From positions 128,001-192,000 of IMG/VR virus record IMGVR_UViG_3300045988_171772: a stretch of 64,000 nucleotides of DNA. One strand, written 5' to 3'. Below are positions 4,729 to 61,568 of the stretch, one piece after another. Numbering within the stretch: the first letter of the stretch is position 1; every line of letters starts with the position of its first letter. Source of the stretch: a virus. A model generated the notes under the pieces. That model was given only the letters and a program-made list of their open reading frames with translations. It was not told where the DNA came from and made no database searches. The position numbers and the translations under genes were made by a program.

Positions 4729-5749
4729 TTGTCTACGATAGTAAATATGATTGATGAAGATATAGACTACAGAAAAGTCTACAGAGAGATTGACAATCTC
4801 GGTGATGATGAGGGACAAAATAAAGCCCCAGACATAGACTTTTCATCCCCTGGGTGGACAAACCCAGACAGTGATAAGGTCGAGCAGTTAATTAAGACTG
4901 ATATTAAGACTCTTACTAAGGTAGCTGAATTAAAGAAGAGCTACGATTTCAAGACCAAGAATAAATCCTTCTTGGAATTGTATCGTGATCTTCACTCATT
5001 AGGTATCAAGAATAATAAATTCTTCTTGGTCATCTATGACAGATCTCTGATTGGAGTAGATCCTTTCTCTGAGGCCCTACCTTTATCTACCAAACTGAGA
5101 ATTATCGTAGAATGTATGCGAAATCCTTGGTATTGGTTACGAGAGATTTGTAGAGTTCCTCAGGATGGTTCTGCCATTGAACCAGGAGGAGGTTCTGAAT
5201 TCATGATAGATAGAACCTCAGCTGCTGCTTGGTATTGCTTTATTAACCATATCGACCATTATCTATGTAAACCTCGTCAGACTGGTAAGACCCATTGTGC
5301 CTTATCAGAGATTGACTATGGGTATACCTTTGGATGTAAGTCTTCTACCATTCTCTTTGCTAATAAAGATGCTGAGAATAATAAGATGAATCTCTATCGA
5401 CTGAAATGTCATAGAGATATGCTTCCCTCTTATATGCATATGAAGACGACCATAGACATGGCAGGAAATCTCATTAAGGAGAAGAATAGTGTTACGACAA
5501 TTCGCAATCCTGTGAATAATAATAACATTAAACTTCTTCCGAGAGCCAATAGCAAAGATTCTGCTATGACCTGTGGACGTGGCGCTACATCGTCTTTGAT
5601 GTATTTTGACGAATGGGACTTTATACCCTACCAAGTCGAAATAATGAATAGCGCTGCCTTTGCGTATTCAAGAGCGAGCGAAAATGCTGCTAAGTCAGGA
5701 TCACTATACAGCCGTATATATTCCTCAACTCCTTTAAAGACGGATATTT
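4729..5749 (+). CDS. terL: terminase large subunit, exon 1 (ATPase domain)
   Basis: Walker A CKPRQTGKT, Walker B LMYFDEWDF and coupling motif SSTP match the T4 gp17 pattern. TTG start 8 nt after AAGGAGGG. The frame hits a stop at 5776 soon after SSTP. Confidence 0.85.
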
Positions 5750-6163
5750 ACTACGAACTCCCACTAATGAAATTATAGATGGAGAAGAATCTGATAGTAG
5801 TGAATATTCGAAAAGGGCCATATAATAGTGATATTATATGGGATCTTCGTGAACTGCTGGGATATCTCTTATTAGAGACGATCAGCAGCCAAGCTTCTTT
5901 CTATATAGAGAGGAGAAGGTTCAACGACTATCGAAAGCACAGGCATAGGAGTAATCCATATGTCGTAGAGCAAGTAGAGTACAGCCAAGCTATTGGGTAG
6001 GTATATAGGTGATAATAGTCTATAGTAAATCCTTTAAATGGAAGTGCGAAGTATCTCTATAGGACGAATATCGCCATATAGAGATAAAGATATAGTCTGA
6101 TTCCCATAGTAATATGGGCGGGTTTCTTATGTAAACCGGTGAGAGTGTAGCGGACTCTCATGG
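5750..6163 (+). ncRNA. candidate ORF-less group I intron interrupting terL (boundaries approximate)
   Basis: A 13-bp helix joins 5742-5754 to 5797-5809, with a U5749-G5802 wobble at the proposed 5' splice site. G6163 as terminal G restores the frame (t+ac = Tyr). AACGACTATC (5923-5932) and GATATAGTCTG (6090-6100) resemble remembered core segments of the T4 td intron. The 3' end ...ACACAATG.. resembles td ...ACATAATG. Confidence 0.6.
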
Positions 6164-7629
6164 ACACAATGGGTGACTTAGATTCTAGAGATGGAGCTGC
6201 TGCTACTGAGTGGCTTTCTCATACTCTCAAGTGGGAAGAAAAATTTTATGATGTCCCTATCGAGAAACTTAGAGCTATGGTTAATGACAACCAATCCAAG
6301 AGGAATGGTGTCATGTGGATCGAGCATTCTTGGAAGCAATTAAAGAAGACACAGGCTTGGTTTGAGAATCAGTGCCGTCTCGTAAACTGGTCTTTGGAAG
6401 TAATCGCGAGGGAGATTGAGCTTAAGAGATTGCATGGCTCTTCTCTGTCTCCCTTCAAGAGAGAAGACATCATGTATATCCAAGCGAATAAAAGAACTCC
6501 GATTGGCGAGATTGATCTTAGTAAAAATATGTGTCCCTTCAAATTCTATAAGAAGATAAAGAAAAGCATTCCTTACTTTATCTGCATTGACCCATCGGAA
6601 GGTCTTGCTCTGGATAACAATGCAATCGAGATTGAATCTCCTTATACCCTTGAAGTGGTATGTGAGATGAAGAATCCCTATATTTCCCAACCAGATCTAT
6701 CTGATATGCTTGTGAAGTTTATGGATCTCTTCTGTCCCAATGCTCTTCTCATTATAGAGAATAACAAGGGTAGAGAATTGATCAACTGTCTCAGAAAGAC
6801 CAAGTATGCAAACCGTATCTGGTATGATACTGGTAAGATGCTGGATGTATCTGAGAAATTGAATAAGTATGGTATGCAGGCTAGAGATTCTCTGGAAAGA
6901 AGAGCATATGGTCTGTCTACCACAAATGCCAGTAGAGCTGTCATGATGGGTATCCTTGAAAGAATGATGGATGAAGAGAAGAGAAAGTTCGTATCAGAGT
7001 ATGTCGTAGATGACATTAGTGCTCTGATTCGTACTCCTTCTGGTAAAATCCAAGCAGCTCAAGGTCAACATGATGACAATATCATGGCCTATCTTTTTGG
7101 TCCCTATATCAAATTCAATTCCAATAATCTGGAAGAATTTGGAATTGATATACATGATATAGACCCAGATGAGGAATCTCTGATGGGGAATATCAGACAA
7201 GTACCAGAAGAGAATAAACCTCTTACTGAAGAAGATCAAATCTTGAAATTGAGAGAAATGTATCCAGATCTTCCTACTGATATCCAAGCTCTCTTGAAAG
7301 ACAATCTCTTCGGTATGAAGGGCGTAAGATTGAAATCCGATCAGGAAGAGAGAAAGAGCTCTGTGCAGCAGATGAAACTGCAACAGACGGCTTCTCAATT
7401 CATCAAGGATGAGACTGTCGATGACTATAAGAGATTGATTGCCTCTAGTACCAGACAGAGATCTCCTTCTGAAGTAGATTATAATTATGACTATGATGGA
7501 GGAGTGCCTTCTGATGATGTCATGATGGATGGAGCTCAGACAGATCGATTCTATGATCATATGTTTGACTCTATCGGTGATTATGAGGCTCAGAATCCGA
7601 ATACCTTTGATCTCAATGACTATATTTAA
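6164..7629 (+). CDS. terL: terminase large subunit, exon 2 (nuclease domain)
   Basis: ICIDPSEG and HDDNIMAY motifs are typical of the RNase H-like TerL nuclease. There is no convincing SD before the track ATG at 6160. Confidence 0.8.
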
Positions 7630-17831: not shown

Positions 17832-17929
17832 ACTTCTATTCTCCTAATTGGTCTGTATATAGGATCTGATACCCTATTTATCCACTATAATTATTTATAA
17901 TTATAGTGGATGGATTTATGAAGGAAATA

Positions 17930-17979
17930 AAAAAGACAGATACGAATGAATAATGAACCTCATTCGTATCTGTCTTTTT
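17930..17979. terminator. perfect 20-bp bidirectional hairpin inside a divergent intergenic region
   Basis: AAAAAGACAGATACGAATGA pairs with TCATTCGTATCTGTCTTTTT. Confidence 0.5.
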
Positions 17980-18525: not shown

Positions 18526-18567
18526 AAGAAAGGGAATGATTTATACGGATCATTCCCTTTCTTTTTA
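18526..18567 (+). terminator. intrinsic terminator (AAGAAAGGGAATGAT / ATCATTCCCTTTCTT)
   Basis: 15-bp stem followed by a T-run. Confidence 0.65.
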
Positions 18568-18629
18568 TAAACAAATCCAATATATTCATTTATGAATGGT
18601 CCCGGGTCTAACCCTGAAACAACGTGTAG

Positions 18630-18703
18630 TCTTTAAAATAAAAACCTTTAAATGGGTGTGACATATGTCGGCTATATACCGGTGTCACACCCATTTAAAG
18701 GTT
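18630..18703 (-). terminator. strong 21-bp hairpin terminator for minus-strand transcripts
   Basis: AACCTTTAAATGGGTGTGACA pairs with TGTCACACCCATTTAAAGGTT; TTTTATTTT on the minus strand. Confidence 0.6.
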
Positions 18704-27885: not shown

Positions 27886-28965
27886 ATGGCTCAGAAGCTC
27901 ATGTTCCCCATGAAGACTCTGAATGTCTCCCAGGGGTATGGTGTCTCTGTGGAGGGTGTTGCTGCAAATACCTTCTCTCATAAGGGAACCAATTGTATCG
28001 ATATTTGCGGTAAAGACACTGGTCAGCAGTATACCTATGCCATGTGTGACTGTGTTGTGAAACGCATTTACAATGGCAATACTGCTTCTTCCAAGTGTAA
28101 CTTTACTTGGTATGAATCTACTGCTCCTGTGCAGACTCGTAAGCATGGTCTGGTTTATGTGAACTGGATCCAGGCTCACTGCAACAATGAGGATATTACC
28201 AAATTGGGTATCCGGGTTGGTAAAGTCTTTAAGCAGGGTGAGATCTGCGGAAGAGAGGGTACCGCTGGTAAAGCCACTGGTAACCATGTCCATATCAGTC
28301 TCGGAATTGGTAAATTCCAGGGAACTGGTTGGTATGAGACTTCCTCTGGTAACTGGCAGTGCTACAATCCTGCTTATCTGAATCAGGAGTGCTATCTGGC
28401 TGCTGATACCGTTATTATCCGCTCTGGTGGATATAACTGGGTTAAGCTGTCTGATTCTACTTCTACTGTCACTCCTCCGACCACTGGTTCTTCGGAATCC
28501 ACCTATACCAAAGGAGCTGCTGTTCGTCTTATCAATGACAAGCTGTATACTGTTTCCTCTGGTACTTCTGGTGTTACCAAGAGTGGTGTCTTCTACATCT
28601 ATGATGGAAAACTCACCAATGGTCGTTATCGTGTCACCAACAATCCCCGCTATTGCAATGACAAGACTCTGAATGTCTCTCATGTATCTGGTTGGGTGAT
28701 TCCCTCTGAAGTGGATAGTGTCTCCAACACGACTTCTTCCACTGCTCCCTATATTGGGAAACCTGTGAAACTGAGTGATCAGAAGCTCTATACTTCTTCT
28801 ACCGGTACCACGGGTTATACCAAATATCAGACCTATTACATCTATGACAATGCTCCTGTGAATAACCGGTATAGAGTCACCAACTCTACCGCCAGAGTTT
28901 ACAAAGGAACCTTTGTCGCCTCCAACGTTTCTGGATGGGTAGATGCTTCTCTTGTCTCTAAGTAA
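27886..28965 (+). CDS. endolysin: M23 (LytM-type) peptidase with two SH3b-like cell-wall-binding repeats
   Basis: H-x-D (SHKGTNCID) and HxH (GNHVHIS) motifs; two about 70-aa repeats ending ...NRYRVTN...VSGWV; AAAGGAGAG SD. Confidence 0.8.
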   Translation: MAQKLMFPMKTLNVSQGYGVSVEGVAANTFSHKGTNCIDICGKDTGQQYTYAMCDCVVKRIYNGNTASSKCNFTWYESTAPVQTRKHGLVYVNWIQAHCNNEDITKLGIRVGKVFKQGEICGREGTAGKATGNHVHISLGIGKFQGTGWYETSSGNWQCYNPAYLNQECYLAADTVIIRSGGYNWVKLSDSTSTVTPPTTGSSESTYTKGAAVRLINDKLYTVSSGTSGVTKSGVFYIYDGKLTNGRYRVTNNPRYCNDKTLNVSHVSGWVIPSEVDSVSNTTSSTAPYIGKPVKLSDQKLYTSSTGTTGYTKYQTYYIYDNAPVNNRYRVTNSTARVYKGTFVASNVSGWVDASLVSK

Positions 28966-29926: not shown

Positions 29927-31624
29927 TTATTCTGCTTTGGTTAAGTTATAGAAGGTGAGATAAGCCTCATTCTGTACCACTCGGATCAATTCCTGATCTT
30001 CTGTGATATAATGCTTGGGAGACTTCAGAAGTTTCTCAGCTTCTTCATTGGCTTCCTGAGTAAAGACCATCTTCTCTGTAATCTGGTCACCGTCATAGTC
30101 TCCTCCCAGACCTTTCAGATAGGGAACGGACATTGTGACAGTATCCACAAAAAGAGTAGACACTCTAGATTCAGGAAGACTCGGATCAATCACAGGATAG
30201 TATTTGTATTCTTTTCCCATGACTGTCATCTTGGTAGTCTTCAGAGTAGAGAGAATAAATACTCTAGACGGGAAGATACCAAAATAGTCAGTCAGAGGAT
30301 ATCTTGTGATATAGACATGCTTATCCGCAAGACAGTTATTAGCACAGATATAGAGAAGATCAGTCCAGGTAAAGACTCTATTTGAGATATCTTTCCCTGC
30401 ATCTGGATTCTTCGGGTTATATTTCGTATCCCCAGGGAATCTAAAAGGAAATTCTCCTTCTTCTGTAGGAATCATAACCGGTCTAAATCGTACACCGGGT
30501 GTATTGATCCAGAGATCAATCTGTTTCTGGACATAGTCTTCGGTATACATGGACATCGGTTCATCGAGATTGATCAATCTCACTTTCCCATCTTTTCCCC
30601 GAATGGGATATCTGGTACCAATGGCTTCAAACAACTGTCTCATGAATTCCAAGACTTCCGCTTTCATGAAGGGGAATCCCATGACACAGAGTTGAGCCAG
30701 AGGAAATCCAGTGGAATACATATCGATCGGATTATCATCAGGGGTATCATACATATCCATGTTGACACAAGAGATAACACTCCGATATCCATAGTCAATG
30801 GATTTACCTAAGACACTCTTTTTGAAGAATCCATGCTTCAATTGGACAAGACTCTGACCATACTTTCTGATATTGAGTAATGTCTGCTGAATCATGAATT
30901 TGGTATTATGTGCCATAGAGGGAATCGGACTTCTCTGATAGAATTGAGCATAACGAATCAAATCGCAATACCACTTATCAATATCCGGAGTCTTTTCGAT
31001 TCCAGATACAGTCTGAATCTCCCTATAGAATACCGGAATGACCAACCACTTTGTGATGACAATGTCTTCCTTCTTATAGGAAGCAAGAAGTTTCACTCTC
31101 TGGTCTCTGATACGAGAAGAGTTTCTCTTCCATTTAAAATCATCCCAATGATCAATCAACCAGTCAATACCAGTAGCCTCAGGATCATAATTGGGTTCTG
31201 TCTCCAGAATCTCTTTGATCTGTCCATCCTTGTCAACACTCCAAGATCCCTGTCCAGCTACAATCTTGGACATGGTATTCTTAGGAATGACGTTGGATAG
31301 AATCTGGTAGATATAAGGATGAAACACTCTGGTACCGATATCAATATAAGAGAATTTCGTCCTTCTCTCATCCGGCGTCACACCAAAAATATAGGGGGAG
31401 AATACACCATCAGAAGTGAATACTCCTCCTCTTTCTTTGGCAGTTGCATTGGTAACTGGGATCATCTTATTTCTCTCGGCATTGAATTCAATAAACTTAT
31501 CCGTGATGATGTCAATGTACATGGGAGAATCATCAGATCCCGCAGTAGGGTTCTTTACACCCTCTAAGGCAGCAACAGTAGAATCCGGAACGAAGTCTTC
31601 TGTCATTTTCCAAAAATTCTTCAT
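29927..31624 (-). CDS. multisubunit RNA polymerase beta-prime-like subunit, N-terminal fragment (catalytic DYDGD)
   Basis: Colinear beta-prime motifs: GVFSPYIFG, WLVIPVFYREIQ, KHGFFKKSVLGKSIDYGYRSVIS, ITRYPLTDYFGIFPSRV and GGDYDGDQI (NADFDGD equivalent). Confidence 0.85.
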   Translation of the reverse strand: MKNFWKMTEDFVPDSTVAALEGVKNPTAGSDDSPMYIDIITDKFIEFNAERNKMIPVTNATAKERGGVFTSDGVFSPYIFGVTPDERRTKFSYIDIGTRVFHPYIYQILSNVIPKNTMSKIVAGQGSWSVDKDGQIKEILETEPNYDPEATGIDWLIDHWDDFKWKRNSSRIRDQRVKLLASYKKEDIVITKWLVIPVFYREIQTVSGIEKTPDIDKWYCDLIRYAQFYQRSPIPSMAHNTKFMIQQTLLNIRKYGQSLVQLKHGFFKKSVLGKSIDYGYRSVISCVNMDMYDTPDDNPIDMYSTGFPLAQLCVMGFPFMKAEVLEFMRQLFEAIGTRYPIRGKDGKVRLINLDEPMSMYTEDYVQKQIDLWINTPGVRFRPVMIPTEEGEFPFRFPGDTKYNPKNPDAGKDISNRVFTWTDLLYICANNCLADKHVYITRYPLTDYFGIFPSRVFILSTLKTTKMTVMGKEYKYYPVIDPSLPESRVSTLFVDTVTMSVPYLKGLGGDYDGDQITEKMVFTQEANEEAEKLLKSPKHYITEDQELIRVVQNEAYLTFYNLTKAE

Positions 31625-31851: not shown

Positions 31852-32556
31852 TTAGAAGATCAGGTCATTCTTCATGAAGCTCGTAAAACTATAAGGAACC
31901 GGATCTGCTTTATAATAGTATCTCTTCAATCTTTCTTCTGCAGCCCTCCATGTGTACTCAGCTCTCTCACGATGGTTGTTAGTTACGGTATTGGCATACT
32001 TTACCCTGATATTCGATTGACTATTCTGATCATTCATCTCAAGAATCTTCTGAGGGAGATGGACATCATAGAGAATATTGAGAAGAAATTGGAATTCTTC
32101 TTCGGTGACAAATTTGATGGCCCGATATCCTTCCAATTTTTGAAGTTCCGGAGTCATTGCAAATGCTCTGGATTTGCTTCCAAAAATATATGCCTTCATA
32201 TGACCTTCATCAAACTCAAAGATATGCGTCAAGAGATTCATCATCTCACTCAAAGTTTCCGGACTTCTCCTATCCTGAGACTTAGCATCATGAACCTTGA
32301 TAACCATCTCATCTGGACTGCATAAGGTATTATAGAAGAATCGGTACATCATCATGGTCGAGAAGATATGGTCATCCATCGTGAAATACTTCCCCAACAT
32401 GTCATGAGGTCTTGGTACAAAGACTGGTTTCCAGAATACTCCATCTGGTTTCAGAGATCGATTCCCTTGCTCCCAGCATGTCATAAAGAAGTGACAAAAC
32501 TTTGCTCCATTGTATGTCCCAAAGTATGGGGCATAATAATAGTGATAGGTCTTCAT
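31852..32556 (-). CDS. hypothetical protein (234 aa)
   Basis: ORF with AAAGGAG about 14 nt upstream. Confidence 0.7.
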   Translation of the reverse strand: MKTYHYYYAPYFGTYNGAKFCHFFMTCWEQGNRSLKPDGVFWKPVFVPRPHDMLGKYFTMDDHIFSTMMMYRFFYNTLCSPDEMVIKVHDAKSQDRRSPETLSEMMNLLTHIFEFDEGHMKAYIFGSKSRAFAMTPELQKLEGYRAIKFVTEEEFQFLLNILYDVHLPQKILEMNDQNSQSNIRVKYANTVTNNHRERAEYTWRAAEERLKRYYYKADPVPYSFTSFMKNDLIF

Positions 32557-32598: not shown

Positions 32599-33393
32599 TC
32601 AACCAGGACCAAACTTCTGGTTGATAGAATACTCACCAAGCCACTTGTAATAGCAATTGCCAATATCGATTCGATTGTTGGATCGATACTCATTCTTCTT
32701 TCTGGTACAGAGCATCTCCTCTAGAGAATGTACCGTATAGTCGGGACTACGATTTCCCAATGCCATCTCATAACAGTCTTCTCTTGCCTTATAGACAACA
32801 TCCCGATTCCATACATGCTTATTATAGAGATCCATAGAGATAATCTCAAATCTGGTATCACACTTCTGATCCCATAAGAGAGTATGAACTCCAAAGAGAT
32901 TCAGATCTGTACATTTCCATCTCTTTGGAGAATTCACAAACTTTATGGTTTTTTCAAGCTTTGCTTTCAGAGCTGGTTCCACCATGAATTTGAAAGTTAT
33001 CTTCTGCTCTGGTAGTGGCAATACCGGGCCAAACAGAATACAGGTCTGCAGATAGTCAATAATACCACACAATGCATGATCAAAGACATTCTCTATATCC
33101 AGATACTCTTTTGAGTTATGATACATTATACCAGGATCAAAGTCCCATCGTATTGATACAATCGGAATCTCAGATAGACCATTCTGCCAATAAGCCTGAT
33201 AAGCACCCGAAGAACCATTCTTCACAAACTCAATCAAGATATAGAAGGTCTTCTTCGCACTGAGGCTAATTGACTTCATATAGAATTCTTGATTCCGTAT
33301 ATGAGGTTCATGCTTCTTCAGAATCTCATTCAGATCATCTAGACTCTCTGGTAAGGGAGTATCGACCCCACCAAACATCTTAACGCTTTGCAT
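32599..33393 (-). CDS. hypothetical protein (start uncertain: ATG 33393, or GTG 33420 as in the track)
   Basis: GGAGG 15 nt upstream of ATG 33393. Confidence 0.65.
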   Translation of the reverse strand: MQSVKMFGGVDTPLPESLDDLNEILKKHEPHIRNQEFYMKSISLSAKKTFYILIEFVKNGSSGAYQAYWQNGLSEIPIVSIRWDFDPGIMYHNSKEYLDIENVFDHALCGIIDYLQTCILFGPVLPLPEQKITFKFMVEPALKAKLEKTIKFVNSPKRWKCTDLNLFGVHTLLWDQKCDTRFEIISMDLYNKHVWNRDVVYKAREDCYEMALGNRSPDYTVHSLEEMLCTRKKNEYRSNNRIDIGNCYYKWLGEYSINQKFGPG

Positions 33394-33559
33394 AAAAGTG
33401 TTATAACGCCTCCATTTCACCTTCCAAGATAGGGGCCTCTACAGCTGACTCCAATACACCTCCTTATATCACTATAATCCTATCTTGTCTATCTAAATCA
33501 TATATGGTTTTATTATTTTATCTGAAGTAAGTCTCTCTTATAGTATTACCTAGATGAAT

Positions 33560-33927
33560 ATATTTACAAGTGGAGCGTAAGCGAAACGGCTCAGATGAAT
33601 TCATACACTATATCCAATCTACCTGGAGGCAATACCGAGTTGTCTAGAAAACTTGTCAGACATGGACGAAAGCGGAGCGGCGATTTATGTGCCTGGAACG
33701 CAGTGCAAGGTCATAAATCGGTAGTACCATGTCTGGGGGTGTGGGGTGATGTACCCCCACGCGCCTAAGCGAACGAAACGAAGTGTAGTGAGTGTGGCAA
33801 GACTTTCCTATAAAAATTTAAATCGATATTAGGTGGAAGCTATTCCTAGCGGACACCTAATATCGCACTCATAAACTAAAGTTGTGATCTTCTTCTATAT
33901 AATTCTTATTATAGAAGAATAATTTTG
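33560..33927 (+). ncRNA. candidate structured RNA domain 1 (GC-rich, nested helices, G/C pseudoknot-like hairpin)
   Basis: Helices 33657-65/33727-35 (9 bp), 33681-89/33712-20 (9 bp) and GTGGGG/CCCCAC 33741-46/33755-60. Repeated TAAGCGAA(A)CG words. Ends at hairpin 33890-33919 followed by TAATTTT. Confidence 0.35.
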
Positions 33928-34147
33928 GCGGAAGGTTTTGAAGATTCATTGAAACGCTGGCTTTTACGTTTCCGACACTACGTGTCTCCAACTAGCCAGC
34001 TGGGGTATTTCTTTCTAAAGAGAAAGAAATACAAGGTAAAAGATTAAAGATAGGAAAACGGAAAAAGTAAACGAAACCAGTGTATCAAGATGTTTACGAT
34101 ACCAGTTATAGTATATGCTCCTAATACTAGAGTATTGACCTTCCGCC
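33927..34147 (+). ncRNA. candidate structured RNA domain 2 (multi-helix junction of about 220 nt closed by a 10-bp helix)
   Basis: GGCGGAAGGT (33927-36) pairs with ACCTTCCGCC (34138-47). Inner helices: 33956-61/33995-34000, 33974-78/33982-86 and a 12-bp hairpin at 34005-16/34021-32. Confidence 0.35.
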
Positions 34148-34337
34148 CCTATTCAATCGTTGCGCGGTCCGTAAAAATTTATTACACCTCTTTCTCCAAT
34201 GAAATACGAGGATTTTGAGTATAATAAGATTTTGGACCCTATTTCAAAAATGATTTCCCAAAATAAAATCTGCAAGGCCTTTGCAAAAAATGTTGAGATG
34301 ATGTCCTCCAACTAAAAGATGAAATTAAAAAGATACC

Positions 34338-34385
34338 AAAATCTCATTATATCTCTTATGAGACATGCGAAATGAGATTTTTTGA
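34338..34385. terminator. terminator hairpin (AAAATCTCATT / AATGAGATTTT)
   Basis: 11-bp stem followed by a T-run. Confidence 0.5.
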
Positions 34386-34574
34386 GTGAGCAAAGATTTT
34401 TTATGTCGAGTTTTAGCATACCTTCTCTGAGAGCCTTCTATATCTGCTCTGAGAGAAGTCGATTTGCTCTAAAACCGTTTGAGACTTTTGAAGGTATTTC
34501 ATCTTCATATGACTCGGTATATAGGCTTATCCTAGAACTCACTAATAAAATTCATCCTGGAGGTAATGAATACA

Positions 34575-35414
34575 ATGGCAAGCGAATTTAATTATTACGC
34601 AGTCATGGAAGATACCTCACCAGCTGGGTATAATACACGCTCGAATATGGGCGTTCAAGAGAATGTCGTGCATGGAGAAACGAGGTCTCTTCGGTTCCGT
34701 GCATGTCTTCAGAGTTTTGGAAGACGAAATCGGAATGGAAGATTGTGGAGAGCTGATATGATGAAGAAAGCTCTGGCAGCTCCTACCATTGTCGAACTTA
34801 TCCAGAAAGGTGACTTTGCTGGAGAGAATGGTCATCCCATTGCTCAGGTTGGTGAAACTTCTATTTCCAGAATTGCTACGATTGATCCTAACAATGTGTG
34901 TCATCGTATCACTGCATTGGAATGGAGTGGAGATCTTGTCTATGGTACCGTAGAGACGATTGATGATATCAATGGTCCTGGTGCTAAGTTGATGAGATCC
35001 ATTATGCAAGGTATGGAACCTGCATTCTCTGTGAGAGCATTGGTACCTCAGAGAAAGAATGCGGATGGTACCTGGGATGTTACTGGAGTAGGTAGAGTGA
35101 TTACCTATGACAGAGTATTCCTTCCTTCTCATATGGAAGCTTATAGAGACCAGAATGTGGATATCAAGATGGTCACTCATGACAATACCTATCAGCAGGT
35201 ATTGGAAAGTTTTGTCTATCCCTATATCTCTTCTCATAGTGATAGAGTGAAGTATGCTACTGACAATACTCAGGTAGCTATGGAGAGTGCACATTATGAT
35301 CCTAAGTCTGGATTGTATAGTGTGAATACTTCTGACAGAAATAGAAGCAGAGTATTCGTTCCTATTGAGAAGAGACTTCAGAAAGAGATGAATGATCTCC
35401 TGAAGAATCTGTAA
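34575..35414 (+). CDS. prohead maturation protease (T4 gp21-like)
   Basis: RRNRNGRLW, FAGENGHP and GPGAKL...AFSVRAL align with remembered gp21 motifs NRNKRLY, LGELNHP and GPGDKL...GVSSRGL. The ATG at 34575 is better spaced from GGAGG than 34566. Confidence 0.85.
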   Translation: MASEFNYYAVMEDTSPAGYNTRSNMGVQENVVHGETRSLRFRACLQSFGRRNRNGRLWRADMMKKALAAPTIVELIQKGDFAGENGHPIAQVGETSISRIATIDPNNVCHRITALEWSGDLVYGTVETIDDINGPGAKLMRSIMQGMEPAFSVRALVPQRKNADGTWDVTGVGRVITYDRVFLPSHMEAYRDQNVDIKMVTHDNTYQQVLESFVYPYISSHSDRVKYATDNTQVAMESAHYDPKSGLYSVNTSDRNRSRVFVPIEKRLQKEMNDLLKNL

Positions 35415-35813: not shown

Positions 35814-36506
35814 TTAAACCCGTCCGATTTTCCGGATGATGTTCATGCCGTCTCCAGGTTTAAGGCCCAGAAGCTTTTCAAGCTTTACGACGGCTGTATA
35901 GTTTTCATATCCGGTCGTGTACACGTTTTCGCTGTTTCCATATACAACATTGATCTTGGTATCATCCCCAAGATCAAACGTGATGGATTCGACGAAACCG
36001 AAATCTCCCTGGTCGAGGACATATTCATTGACCGGAATAATCCTGTCACCGATCTTCAGGGTATAAGCATACTCAGATTCAGACCAGTCTTCACTGAGTG
36101 CTGATTTCGAATCCATTGAGATGGAGAATGCATCCGCTTCATCGTCATCGTAACGATGAGCATATCTCATCTCCGAGCACATTTCAATGAGCTCCTCCTC
36201 AATAAACGCTTGAAGACTATAAATAGAGAAGGATCGGCATCCCAGTCTTTTTGTCAGGATGTCGACGTGCTTATCGGATTTAAGGTCGTAGGCCTTACCC
36301 CCGAAGTGAATACTGGCTTCGAAGTCAGTATTATACGTATCGTCGGCAGACCCAACTACCTCCAGCCGGCAACATTTTCCGTTCTGGAGATACACCATGT
36401 CGGTAAATTTAACCCTGATGTAAAACTCGGGATAATGTTCAGTGCCATCGAGGAACTGAACTTTCCGAGTTTCAATATAACGGATACCCACAGTTTTAGT
36501 TTTCAT
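35814..36506 (-). CDS. hypothetical protein (230 aa)
   Basis: AAAGGAGA SD upstream of ATG. Confidence 0.75.
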   Translation of the reverse strand: MKTKTVGIRYIETRKVQFLDGTEHYPEFYIRVKFTDMVYLQNGKCCRLEVVGSADDTYNTDFEASIHFGGKAYDLKSDKHVDILTKRLGCRSFSIYSLQAFIEEELIEMCSEMRYAHRYDDDEADAFSISMDSKSALSEDWSESEYAYTLKIGDRIIPVNEYVLDQGDFGFVESITFDLGDDTKINVVYGNSENVYTTGYENYTAVVKLEKLLGLKPGDGMNIIRKIGRV

Positions 36507-36532
36507 TTTTATCTTTCTCCTTTTTTGATTTA

Positions 36533-36889
36533 TTAACCAAGATTATCCAGATTCAAAGAATCGAAGAGAGCGATTGCTTTTTCAACCTTTTCGGAAGAGA
36601 CAGTGATATCTTCACCACTCTCTTTCTGGATGATGGCGATGATTAAGGGACGGATGGTATTGAGCATCTCTTCGACTCTATCATAGTCTCTCAGTACCGC
36701 ATTGGTATTTTCCTCGATCTTGCGAATTGCTTCATCCGCTTCTTTGAAACTCCCATACTTGATACCAAGCATCCGGCATTCATGTTTAGTCTCTTCACAG
36801 TTTTTGATTATTTCTTTCCGATTCTTTTCCAGAGTCCATTCTGCTGCCATGAACCGGACGATCAGATTGTTAATATCGTTGATATTCAT
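36533..36889 (-). CDS. hypothetical helical protein (118 aa)
   Basis: AAAGGAGA SD upstream of ATG. Confidence 0.7.
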   Translation of the reverse strand: MNINDINNLIVRFMAAEWTLEKNRKEIIKNCEETKHECRMLGIKYGSFKEADEAIRKIEENTNAVLRDYDRVEEMLNTIRPLIIAIIQKESGEDITVSSEKVEKAIALFDSLNLDNLG

Positions 36890-38520: not shown

Positions 38521-38606
38521 TGGTGCTGAAGATGGGAGTTGAACCCATATGGTATCACTACCAAGAGACTTAAGTCTCTTGCGTATGCCATTTTCGTCAC
38601 TTCAGC
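38521..38606 (-). tRNA. type II tRNA-Leu(UAA)-like gene with non-canonical anticodon arm, CCA encoded
   Basis: Acceptor GCTGAAG/CTTCAGC, T-arm ATGGG-TTCAACT-CCCAT, variable arm GGTA-GTGA-TACC. The anticodon region CAAGAGACTTAAGTCTCTTG is a perfect palindrome, which gives a 6-nt or 8-nt loop rather than 7 nt. Confidence 0.75.
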
Positions 38607-39124: not shown

Positions 39125-40135
39125 TTACTCGTCTTTCTTATAAGGATTCCCACAGCTCATTTTCCCTTCGGTGCATCCACCACGAATACAACCAGGACCA
39201 GCATTCGCAAAGAGGGTAGGAGCTACTTCTTTACATTGCGTCAGCATCTGCCAAGCAATGTTACGAATTTCAGCCTGAGCTCTATTGCAGCATCTCAGTG
39301 TAAAGAAATGACGAAGTTCTCTTGCATTCATGGTAATCACCATATTGCAAGTGCAAGCATTCGGCAATACCGCTCTTGCATTCTCATTGGCAATCTTGGA
39401 ATACTTATTGAATGCATTCTTGAATTTATCATTCCCCATAAAGAGAATCTTGTAGATGCTGATCTGATCATTCTCTTCATAGTTCATGAAGTCAGACTCA
39501 GGATTGATGTAAGGATATCCTTCAGAATACCATTTCTTTTCCAGAGTGGCATAATAGGGCATATGCTCCTCATTCTCAGGAATCTTAATATAGTCCTGAT
39601 CACCAAAGAGCTCGTCTGTATTCTCACAGATAAAATAGCTGAGTAGCATAAAGAGAATCCGATCCCGAATGAGGATATAGTCCTTCTTGGATTCTGCAAT
39701 TGCATTGACGAAAGCATCATCGATTGCATACTGCATTTTCTCTCCAGTGTAATTCCCAGCAAGATTTGTATTGGGATGATGGAGAGGATACTCAATATAC
39801 TCAGGAACTCCAACTTGGAAATCGCTGAAGTTGATGTATCTCTGTGACTGCACAGAGAAACTGGCAATACGATGACGAGTGATCTGAGCGAGACAAGATC
39901 TTGTCATATCCGTAATAAGGAATGTGAAAGATGCGTGCTCGATCGGACTCTCATGACCATATCCTTCCAGATGAGAGAGATACCGAGATACCTCTTCATC
40001 CGTAAGAGACTCCCAGATCTTATCCGGTTCCGTATTGGAATAGCAGAGCTTAGCTGCCAAAGCAACCACTTTCTCAGGTTCCGGAGTGTGAGCAATCAGA
40101 GTAGCTTTCGGATACACGACTTTGATCGGTTCCAT
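39125..40135 (-). CDS. thyX: flavin-dependent thymidylate synthase ThyX
   Basis: ThyX signature RHRxxSxxxxSxR present as ITRHRIASFSVQSQRY; also ESPIEHASFTF; GGAGGA SD. Confidence 0.85.
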   Translation of the reverse strand: MEPIKVVYPKATLIAHTPEPEKVVALAAKLCYSNTEPDKIWESLTDEEVSRYLSHLEGYGHESPIEHASFTFLITDMTRSCLAQITRHRIASFSVQSQRYINFSDFQVGVPEYIEYPLHHPNTNLAGNYTGEKMQYAIDDAFVNAIAESKKDYILIRDRILFMLLSYFICENTDELFGDQDYIKIPENEEHMPYYATLEKKWYSEGYPYINPESDFMNYEENDQISIYKILFMGNDKFKNAFNKYSKIANENARAVLPNACTCNMVITMNARELRHFFTLRCCNRAQAEIRNIAWQMLTQCKEVAPTLFANAGPGCIRGGCTEGKMSCGNPYKKDE

Positions 40136-61507: not shown

Positions 61508-61568
61508 AAATACCTAGTATGATTCTAGTTTCTATATACTAAGAATCATACTAGGTATTTATTTTGTC
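61508..61568. terminator. bidirectional terminator (AAATACCTAGTATGATTCT / AGAATCATACTAGGTATTT)
   Basis: 19-bp stem between convergent genes. Confidence 0.7.

Follow-up and report, generated by a model that had tools for sequence, protein, structure and literature searches.

The 64,000-nucleotide (nt) stretch of IMG/VR virus record IMGVR_UViG_3300045988_171772 analysed here, which we call the window, contains a divergent gap of 1181 nt at 33394-34574, bounded by the ATG at 33393 of a minus-strand gene (32599-33393, 264 amino acids (aa) as called in relatives; hereafter the left gene) and by the ATG at 34575 of a prohead protease gene. Our comparison of strains would suggest that this gap, which lies upstream of the protease gene, is a non-coding spacer of plastic, cassette-like make-up, and that a 167-nt element within it, at 33646-33812, is an accessory, species-specific gene for a small structured RNA encoded on the plus strand. 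We give this reading a probability of roughly 45%, and we infer the transcription, strand, ends and function of the RNA; the anatomy of the region, its variation among strains, the reduced substitution rate of the element and the absence of a coding signal were observed directly. Most of the gap would be dispensable and would turn over rapidly, with terminator-type hairpins coming and going, loops flipping and whole segments being swapped. Two pieces would be constrained, namely the 57 nt before the protease start, carrying a promoter and a ribosome-binding site (RBS), and the 167-nt element, which would be transcribed on the plus strand and end at the hairpins at 33824-33865 and/or 33890-33926.

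The element is the core of Domain 1 (about 33560-33927), the first of two compact structured RNA domains that an earlier reading made from the letters of the window (the sequence-only reading) had placed in the gap, the other being Domain 2 (33927-34147). The helices named in that reading are all present and all exact, among them the nested Domain 1 helices 33657-65/33727-35 and 33681-89/33712-20 and a G-run/C-run hairpin. It was also right to regard the gap as exceptional, non-coding and rich in secondary structure: at 1145 nt, the gap is the longest stretch of the window without an open reading frame (ORF) of at least 75 aa, the runner-up measuring 551 nt. The RNAalifold consensus of the Domain 1 core has the following parts.

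33646-33812, plus strand: Domain 1 core, a closed multi-helix element of 167 nt
33647-58/33795-807: predicted outer helix, which closes the element
33659-65/33727-33: predicted helix P1
33681-94/33708-20: predicted helix P2
33734-46/33755-67: predicted G/C hairpin
33769-79/33783-93: predicted small 3' hairpin, partly deleted in three haplotypes

The Domain 1 core varies less than expected of neutral sequence linked to it. Among 13 haplotypes of the species, 18 of its 167 columns are variable (10.8%), compared with 30 of the 117 fourfold-degenerate sites of the protease gene (25.6%; Fisher p=0.0013), and a five-haplotype version of the test gave 5.9% vs 14.5% (p=0.014). Even in lineages where the left gene next to it has fallen to 62% identity, the core remains at least 95% identical. 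The substitutions that do occur in the predicted helices are consistent with pairing on the plus strand. All seven distinct transitions (7/7) keep plus-strand pairing via G-U, whereas on the minus strand the four transitions at Watson-Crick pairs would give A-C mismatches, and A-C would also take the place of the three G-U pairs; each of the three transversions breaks a pair. In haplotype L024, the substitution G33691A together with a 1-nt insertion (A) turns P2 into a perfect helix of 12 bp. The core is also GC-rich (51.5%, in the top 3.5% of 167-nt windows), and the GC content of 33600-33799 reaches up to 50.5%, to be compared with a window average of 41%, ~23-45% in intergenic gaps and 56-59% in the tRNA genes of the window. 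A covariance model of Domain 1 (R1) recovered 13 of the 14 haplotype contigs at 177-207 bits; it matched the window once, and 66 related loci gave no match.

Several observations weigh against an RNA gene. Two-sided covariation was found at 0 of 55 pairs in 11 distinct sequences, an absence that we attribute to low divergence. The rate test takes for granted a common genealogy of the protease gene and Domain 1, in a population that recombines. The minimum free energy (MFE) z-score of the core is modest and about equal on the two strands (plus -2.4, minus -2.9). Domain 1 is missing from haplotype L087, whose encoded protease is identical to that of the window, and from every phage of other species examined, even where the protease is 90% identical. 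Rfam gave no match for Domain 1 even at E<=10, and neither k-mer enrichment nor upstream listings yielded a clear promoter motif for it. The hairpin at 33890-33919, which could mark the end of the transcript, carries two uncompensated stem changes in L023.

How the rest of the gap behaves is seen from about twenty contigs, which gave 13 or more usable haplotypes of the same phage with gaps of 788-1192 nt. The gap is composed of the following features in addition to the Domain 1 core.

33394-33530, minus strand: upstream region of the left gene, with a Shine-Dalgarno-like CCTCC on the plus strand at 33409-33413; diverges along with the left gene
33531-33645, plus strand: variable lead-in to Domain 1, with a hypervariable patch at 33604-33620
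33622-33633, plus strand: invariant RBS-like CCTGGAGGCAAT within a small predicted hairpin
33824-33865: perfect 12-bp hairpin with an 18-nt loop and a T-rich tail on the minus-strand side; haplotype L024 loses the top pair (G33835A)
33890-33926, plus strand: AT-rich 10-bp hairpin (33890-33919) followed by TAATTTT, a possible 3' end of a Domain 1 transcript
33927-36/34138-47: Domain 2 closing helix GGCGGAAGGT/ACCTTCCGCC, exact over 10 bp in the window
33948-34004: second conserved island of 57 nt, with possible stems GCTGGCT/AGCCAGC and GACAC/GTGTC
34005-34032: perfect 12-bp hairpin, unaligned in L087 in a way that resembles a clean deletion
34108-34517: dimorphic segment with two unrelated alleles, one long and one of ~165 nt
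34338-34381: hairpin followed by a T run, within the long allele of the dimorphic segment
34518-34574, plus strand: protease upstream block, with AAC-N7-TA at 34536-34547 and GGAGG at 34559-34563; 1.8-3.5% of columns vary

The haplotypes form two lineages, the second consisting of L023, L024, L088, L093, L095 and L096. Compared with the window, the second lineage has the following layout.

Left gene: 62% identical in nucleotides (measured in L023/L024)
33394-33530: as divergent as the left gene, with 43-50% of columns variable
About 33531-34107: retained, 91% identical in L023/L024
34108-34517: replaced by an unrelated segment of ~165 nt
34518 onward: 98% identical

On this comparison, a sharp mosaic boundary lies at ~33530, inside the gap. 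The divergence to its left extends over two genes, 32599-33393 and 31852-32556 being 62-67% identical in nucleotides to L023/L024 despite a protease that is 98-100% identical. To its right, 37% of the columns in 33531-33621 vary. The long allele of 34108-34517 is found in the window, L007, L008, L025, L089, L090, L092 and L094, and the ~165-nt allele in L011 and in all six members of the second lineage (L023, L024, L088, L093, L095 and L096). Haplotype L087, which has the same protease as the window and no Domain 1, keeps 33948-34007 (91.7% identical) and some right-hand fragments.

The protease upstream block is well conserved, with 98% identity in both L006 and L011 and a partial alignment in L005. 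Its AAC-N7-TA motif resembles the late-promoter consensus of phage AR9 (PMC7598289) and is a candidate promoter. The sequence CCTGGAGGYAAT is a repeat common to the Domain 1 lead-in and the protease RBS. Besides this promoter block and the 57-nt island, the Domain 1 core alone behaves as if constrained.

The hairpins of the gap have to be seen against those of the whole window, where perfect hairpins of at least 10 bp number 52, compared with 3-5 in shuffled sequences. Most of them (41/52) are non-coding and placed 3' of gene ends, mostly with a T-rich tail in the direction of transcription, and because of this location and these tails we regard them as the terminator-type elements of this phage. 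The seven other divergent gaps of the window (86-338 nt) contain zero such hairpins, whereas this one contains four, compared with 0.056 expected from shuffles for local hairpins with perfect stems of at least 10 bp. At 3.4 per kb, their density is no higher than in the remaining non-coding DNA (5.0 per kb). The oddity of the gap is the presence of 3'-end-type hairpins where no gene ends, not structure as such, and these four orphan hairpins imply that unannotated transcription units end within the gap. By comparison, one 10-bp inverted repeat at a spacing of 31-250 nt is unsurprising by chance (shuffle mean 0.28).

Among the hairpins of the gap, those at 33890-33919 and 34338-34381 have long perfect stems and T-rich tails, like the other post-gene hairpins of this phage, and in this they recall intrinsic terminators. 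AT-rich stems and the lack of an upstream gene set them apart from intrinsic terminators, and a simple consensus scan for G+C-rich stems called no terminator in the gap; L023 has a degraded version of the first, and the second belongs to a dispensable allele. The terminator proposed at 34338-34385 thus exists as a hairpin followed by a T run, but it sits in a segment that many strains have swapped for an unrelated shorter allele, and it is dispensable because 34108-34517 exists as two unrelated alleles. Across the window, almost all genes have a long perfect hairpin with a stem of 12-21 bp behind them (e.g. at 965-1581, 17880-17979, 18526-18703 and 61508-61560), and many hairpins are flanked by an A run and a T run and could work in both directions. 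Five long perfect hairpins and no long ORF are found in the gap at 963-1611.

In phages outside the species, the position of the gap is occupied in different ways. Where the protease is 90% (L001-3, L017), 76% (L005) or 63% (L018) identical, gene order is the same and a large gap of 608-1143 nt is present, and blastn detects no similarity to the gap of the window beyond the last 30-57 nt before the protease start. The phages with 90% and 76% protease identity show no likeness to Domain 1 or Domain 2 by sequence or by covariance model, and the gaps of these relatives carry long perfect hairpins of their own. At ~51-53% protease identity, the slot is filled with genes:

L027, 3646-3821, plus strand: two tRNA genes, tRNA-Gly and tRNA-Thr
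L019, 2763-3887, and L021, 2798-3919: GH25 lysin gene with C-terminal repeats

A homologue of these C-terminal repeats is found in the window at 27886-28965. In the wider family, the slot is a plain divergent gap of 120-230 nt without hairpins. The slot is a clade-specific hot spot of plasticity.

The main rival of an RNA gene is debris. The whole gap would then be made up of remnants of lost cassettes and leftover terminators at a recombination hot spot, and Domain 1 would share recent ancestry among strains, not function. The varied contents of the slot, which holds lysin or tRNA genes in some relatives and unrelated hairpin-rich DNA in others (L001, L005, L017, L018), would be expected of such debris, as would the short ordinary gap of the wider family, the swapping of segments, the occurrence of hairpins as indels, the fact that L087 does without Domain 1 and the neutral evolution of Domain 2. 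We consider this explanation unlikely, if the most serious of the rivals, since Domain 1 varies 2.4-fold less than the linked fourfold-degenerate sites of the protease gene while the flanking Domain 2a, in the same conserved block, does not. Moreover, substitutions in Domain 1 avoid or preserve its helices, and no remnant of a protein, GH25 included, is detectable. That the same slot in L027 carries RNA genes lends support to the RNA-gene reading.

The next alternative is that the Domain 1 core acts in cis as DNA, for instance as a signal for replication, priming or packaging, or as a cluster of palindromes that bind a protein. Its main helices are perfect Watson-Crick inverted repeats, and its two strands fold equally well. 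For the whole domains, the z-scores of the MFE against shuffles were -3.6 for Domain 1 and -5.7 for Domain 2 on the plus strand, and -5.4 and -6.0 on the minus strand, so that here too the plus strand is not favoured. The inversion of a loop in the gap and changes that perfect a palindrome, as in L024, are typical of template switching at the level of DNA. However, changes in the helices pass through G-T/G-U intermediates on one strand only, and neither iterons nor repeated boxes were found. An origin or a packaging site would also not be expected to be dispensable in L087 and absent from close relatives. We regard a DNA element as improbable.

The sequence-only reading itself, in which Domain 1 and a closed Domain 2 form one functional RNA unit tied to the head-maturation gene, fares less well still. 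It is true that both regions fold far better than shuffles and adjoin the protease gene. However, when the arms of the Domain 2 closing helix were tabulated across 12-13 haplotypes, GGCGGAAGGT/ACCTTCCGCC formed 10/10 pairs in six haplotypes, and the other seven had 4-7/10 pairs with no compensation. In L008, GGCTAACAGT with an unchanged 3' arm forms 6/10 pairs, and in the second lineage GGCTAATAGT, GGCTGATAGT, GGCGAAAGGT or GGCGGAAGGT with ACGTTCCTCA form 4-7/10. The proportion of variable columns in 33927-34107 (19.3%) is indistinguishable from the 25.6% at the protease fourfold-degenerate sites (p=0.20). Domain 2 is not a conserved closed domain, because its arms vary independently without compensation, and its closing helix is lineage-specific. 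The multi-helix junction that had been proposed was therefore not borne out. Part of Domain 1 does act like a constrained structured element. L087 further shows that parts of Domain 2 can be present where Domain 1 is not. As for head maturation, nothing ties the region to it: the protease gene has a conserved 57-nt upstream block of its own, with a putative promoter, and most relatives have a short plain gap before the gene. The sequence-only reading had named poor conservation in relatives as evidence against a two-domain RNA, and poor conservation is what we observed outside the species, where the two-domain idea accordingly fails. We consider this unit very improbable.

What is conserved in Domain 2 is the 57-nt island. 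Only 2 of the 50 columns in 33950-33999 vary, and the island is kept in all haplotypes, including L087, which lacks Domain 1 (91.7% over 60 nt). Next to it, the loop of the hairpin at 34005-34032 (34017-34022) reads TAAAGA, GTTTTA or TAAAAC depending on the strain. Flips of this kind typically arise when an inverted repeat undergoes internal recombination or template switching. Both orientations, GTTTTA and TAAAAC, occur among L007, L008, L023 and L024.

That the gap instead encodes small proteins below the ORF thresholds (42 aa from a TTG at 33640-33768, 38 aa at 34199-34315 and 62 aa at 34404-34591) is hardly credible: an RBS-like GGAGG does stand 10 nt ahead of the TTG at 33640, a terminator-like hairpin comes after the 38-aa ORF and the 62-aa ORF was called as a gene in L007, but the ORFs are broken in sister strains (by an insertion in L024, an A run and an 11-nt insertion in L008 and a stop in L007), changes in them are mostly non-synonymous, no family matches were found and the segment is missing from short-allele strains. 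The description of the gap as being without ORFs accordingly holds for conserved ORFs; the short ones that it does contain are interrupted by frameshifts or stops in sister strains. A 74-aa open frame in Domain 1 is stopped in L007 and frameshifted in L024, and its changes are mostly non-synonymous; the 38-aa ORF and a 62/69-aa ORF are frameshifted in L008. Six-frame segments of the gap gave no Pfam or PHROG match. A search of 1.84 billion proteins with the 74-aa frame returned two matches, both artefacts of tandem-repeat proteins, and tblastn with the slot lysin of L019/L021 revealed no remnant of a GH25 pseudogene in the gap.

Known RNA families were likewise not recognised. The Rfam cmscan that had been suggested as a check gave zero gathering-level matches in 33394-34574, and at E<=10 the Rfam 15 scan of the gap returned six weak matches to implausible families, far under threshold; outside the gap, the same scan picks up three tRNAs and the group I intron at 5800-6119. 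The families covered include riboswitches, ribozymes, group I/II introns, RNase P, 6S, pRNA, GOLLD/ROOL and HEARO. Neither ARAGORN nor the Rfam tRNA model RF00005 found a tRNA or transfer-messenger RNA in the gap. Exact-pattern scans of IMG/VR and GTDB for Domain 1 gave chance matches only.

A number of more specific interpretations were considered and rejected. The hexamer CCTAGA, present upstream of both Domain 1 and the protease gene, was tried as a promoter, but 14 of 300 shuffles score as high as the similarity around it, which is moreover unconserved among strains. The motif GAGCGTAAGCGA, shared by the window and L017 and, with a gap, by L001, loses a base in L023/L024, where a small stem is broken, and was not retained as a conserved site. 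The 9-nt direct repeat TTATAGTAT near both ends of the conserved block is imperfect in other haplotypes and was taken as coincidence. A riboswitch or cis-regulatory leader does not fit, the next plus-strand gene being 760 nt downstream with its own conserved 57-nt block and a dimorphic, dispensable segment in between. A mobile element, such as a miniature inverted-repeat transposable element (MITE) or an intron-like element, was rejected on the single match of the covariance model in the window and its lack of matches in the 66 related loci.

If the Domain 1 core is indeed an RNA gene, it may be compared with structured RNAs of other phages. T4 encodes the stable RNAs C and D (species 1 and 2), which are small, structured and GC-richer, together with its tRNA cluster. 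The likeness lies in a region that otherwise bears tRNAs, the equivalent slot of L027 having two tRNA genes; the difference is that no tRNA adjoins Domain 1, so processing from a tRNA precursor cannot be assumed. The pRNA of phi29 (Rfam RF00044) is a structured phage non-coding RNA (ncRNA) of ~170 nt. Domain 1 is of similar size and lies near morphogenesis functions, but it has no Rfam match at E<=10 and is dispensable in L087, and phages of this group are not known to use RNA in packaging.

Closer in setting are the ncRNAs of giant phages. PA5oct has four, ncRNA001-004, which are intergenic, 236-619 nt long and were found by transcriptomics (PMC7318152), and 201phi2-1 has three intergenic small RNAs (sRNAs) (PMC11512511). 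Like Domain 1, they occupy ORF-free intergenic stretches of giant phages, lack similarity to known sequences and are restricted to a lineage; unlike Domain 1, which we know here from sequence, they were defined by observed transcripts. The sRNA005 of 201phi2-1 and phiKZ is conserved across genera, whereas Domain 1 is found in one species only and is missing from one strain. Intergenic ncRNAs are thus already known in jumbo phages, and Domain 1, if real, would join them. It is quite possible, if somewhat less likely than not, that with 33646-33812 we have the first known member of a new family of structured phage RNAs, restricted to this species: an accessory RNA kept by selection in an otherwise scrambled spacer. 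Such an RNA could possibly regulate host or phage factors or serve as a decoy for them.

To our knowledge, ncRNAs of jumbo phages come only from a few cultured Pseudomonas phages, and the giant phages that inhabit the human gut have hardly been characterised at all. A constrained, GC-rich RNA candidate of gene size in a phage widespread in the gut would be a concrete target for the mining of metatranscriptomes. The locus also illustrates how spacers evolve in these phages, by gain and loss of hairpins, inversion of loops and swapping of cassettes, and it teaches caution, as helices that are striking in a single genome, such as the closing helix of Domain 2, can disappear in sister strains.

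The genome that carries the gap is that of a jumbo phage encoding its own multisubunit RNA polymerase, as seen from the nearby genes, which include an RNA polymerase beta subunit and the prohead protease. The identical protease accounts for 163 blocks of public assemblies; the contigs concerned are 255-272 kb long, and a number of matching contigs are labelled human gut metagenome; the phage is a widespread, uncultured human-gut jumbo phage. One locus, L091, is 100% identical to the window over 32599-35414, and scaffold_8 of ena:ERZ28621018 is likewise identical to the window. Among GenBank phages, the closest proteases are those of Staphylococcus, Bacillus and Yersinia jumbo phages, at only ~31% identity. 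Blastn with the gap gave zero matches to GenBank phages, as did the left gene, and protein-pattern scans of IMG/VR with both flanking genes found nothing. Other features of the window are as follows.

5800-6119: group I intron (Rfam RF00028, 81 bits), which splits the terminase large-subunit gene into ORFs 4729-5778 and 6160-7629
29927-31624, minus strand: RNA polymerase beta subunit, phrog_2986
34575-35414, plus strand: prohead protease, Peptidase_S80/S77, flanking the gap
38521-38606, minus strand: tRNA-like gene (ARAGORN 'tRNA-???' with a two-base anticodon; Rfam tRNA, 38.6 bits)
39125-40135, minus strand: gene for ThyX (Thy1), a flavin-dependent thymidylate synthase

The ORF upstream of the intron matches the N-terminal part of terminase, and the downstream ORF matches a terminase family. 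The ThyX gene suggests that the phage of the window may have thymine-containing DNA, unlike its nearest cultured relatives AR9 and PBS1, which are uracil-DNA phages (PMC7598289). The counterpart of the tRNA-like gene in L023 was called as tRNA-Leu(taa). Beyond the protease gene, the two genes 3' of its cluster (35814-36889, minus strand) are hypervariable among strains, with ~54% and ~75% nucleotide identity to L007, and the number and size of genes around them vary between haplotypes.

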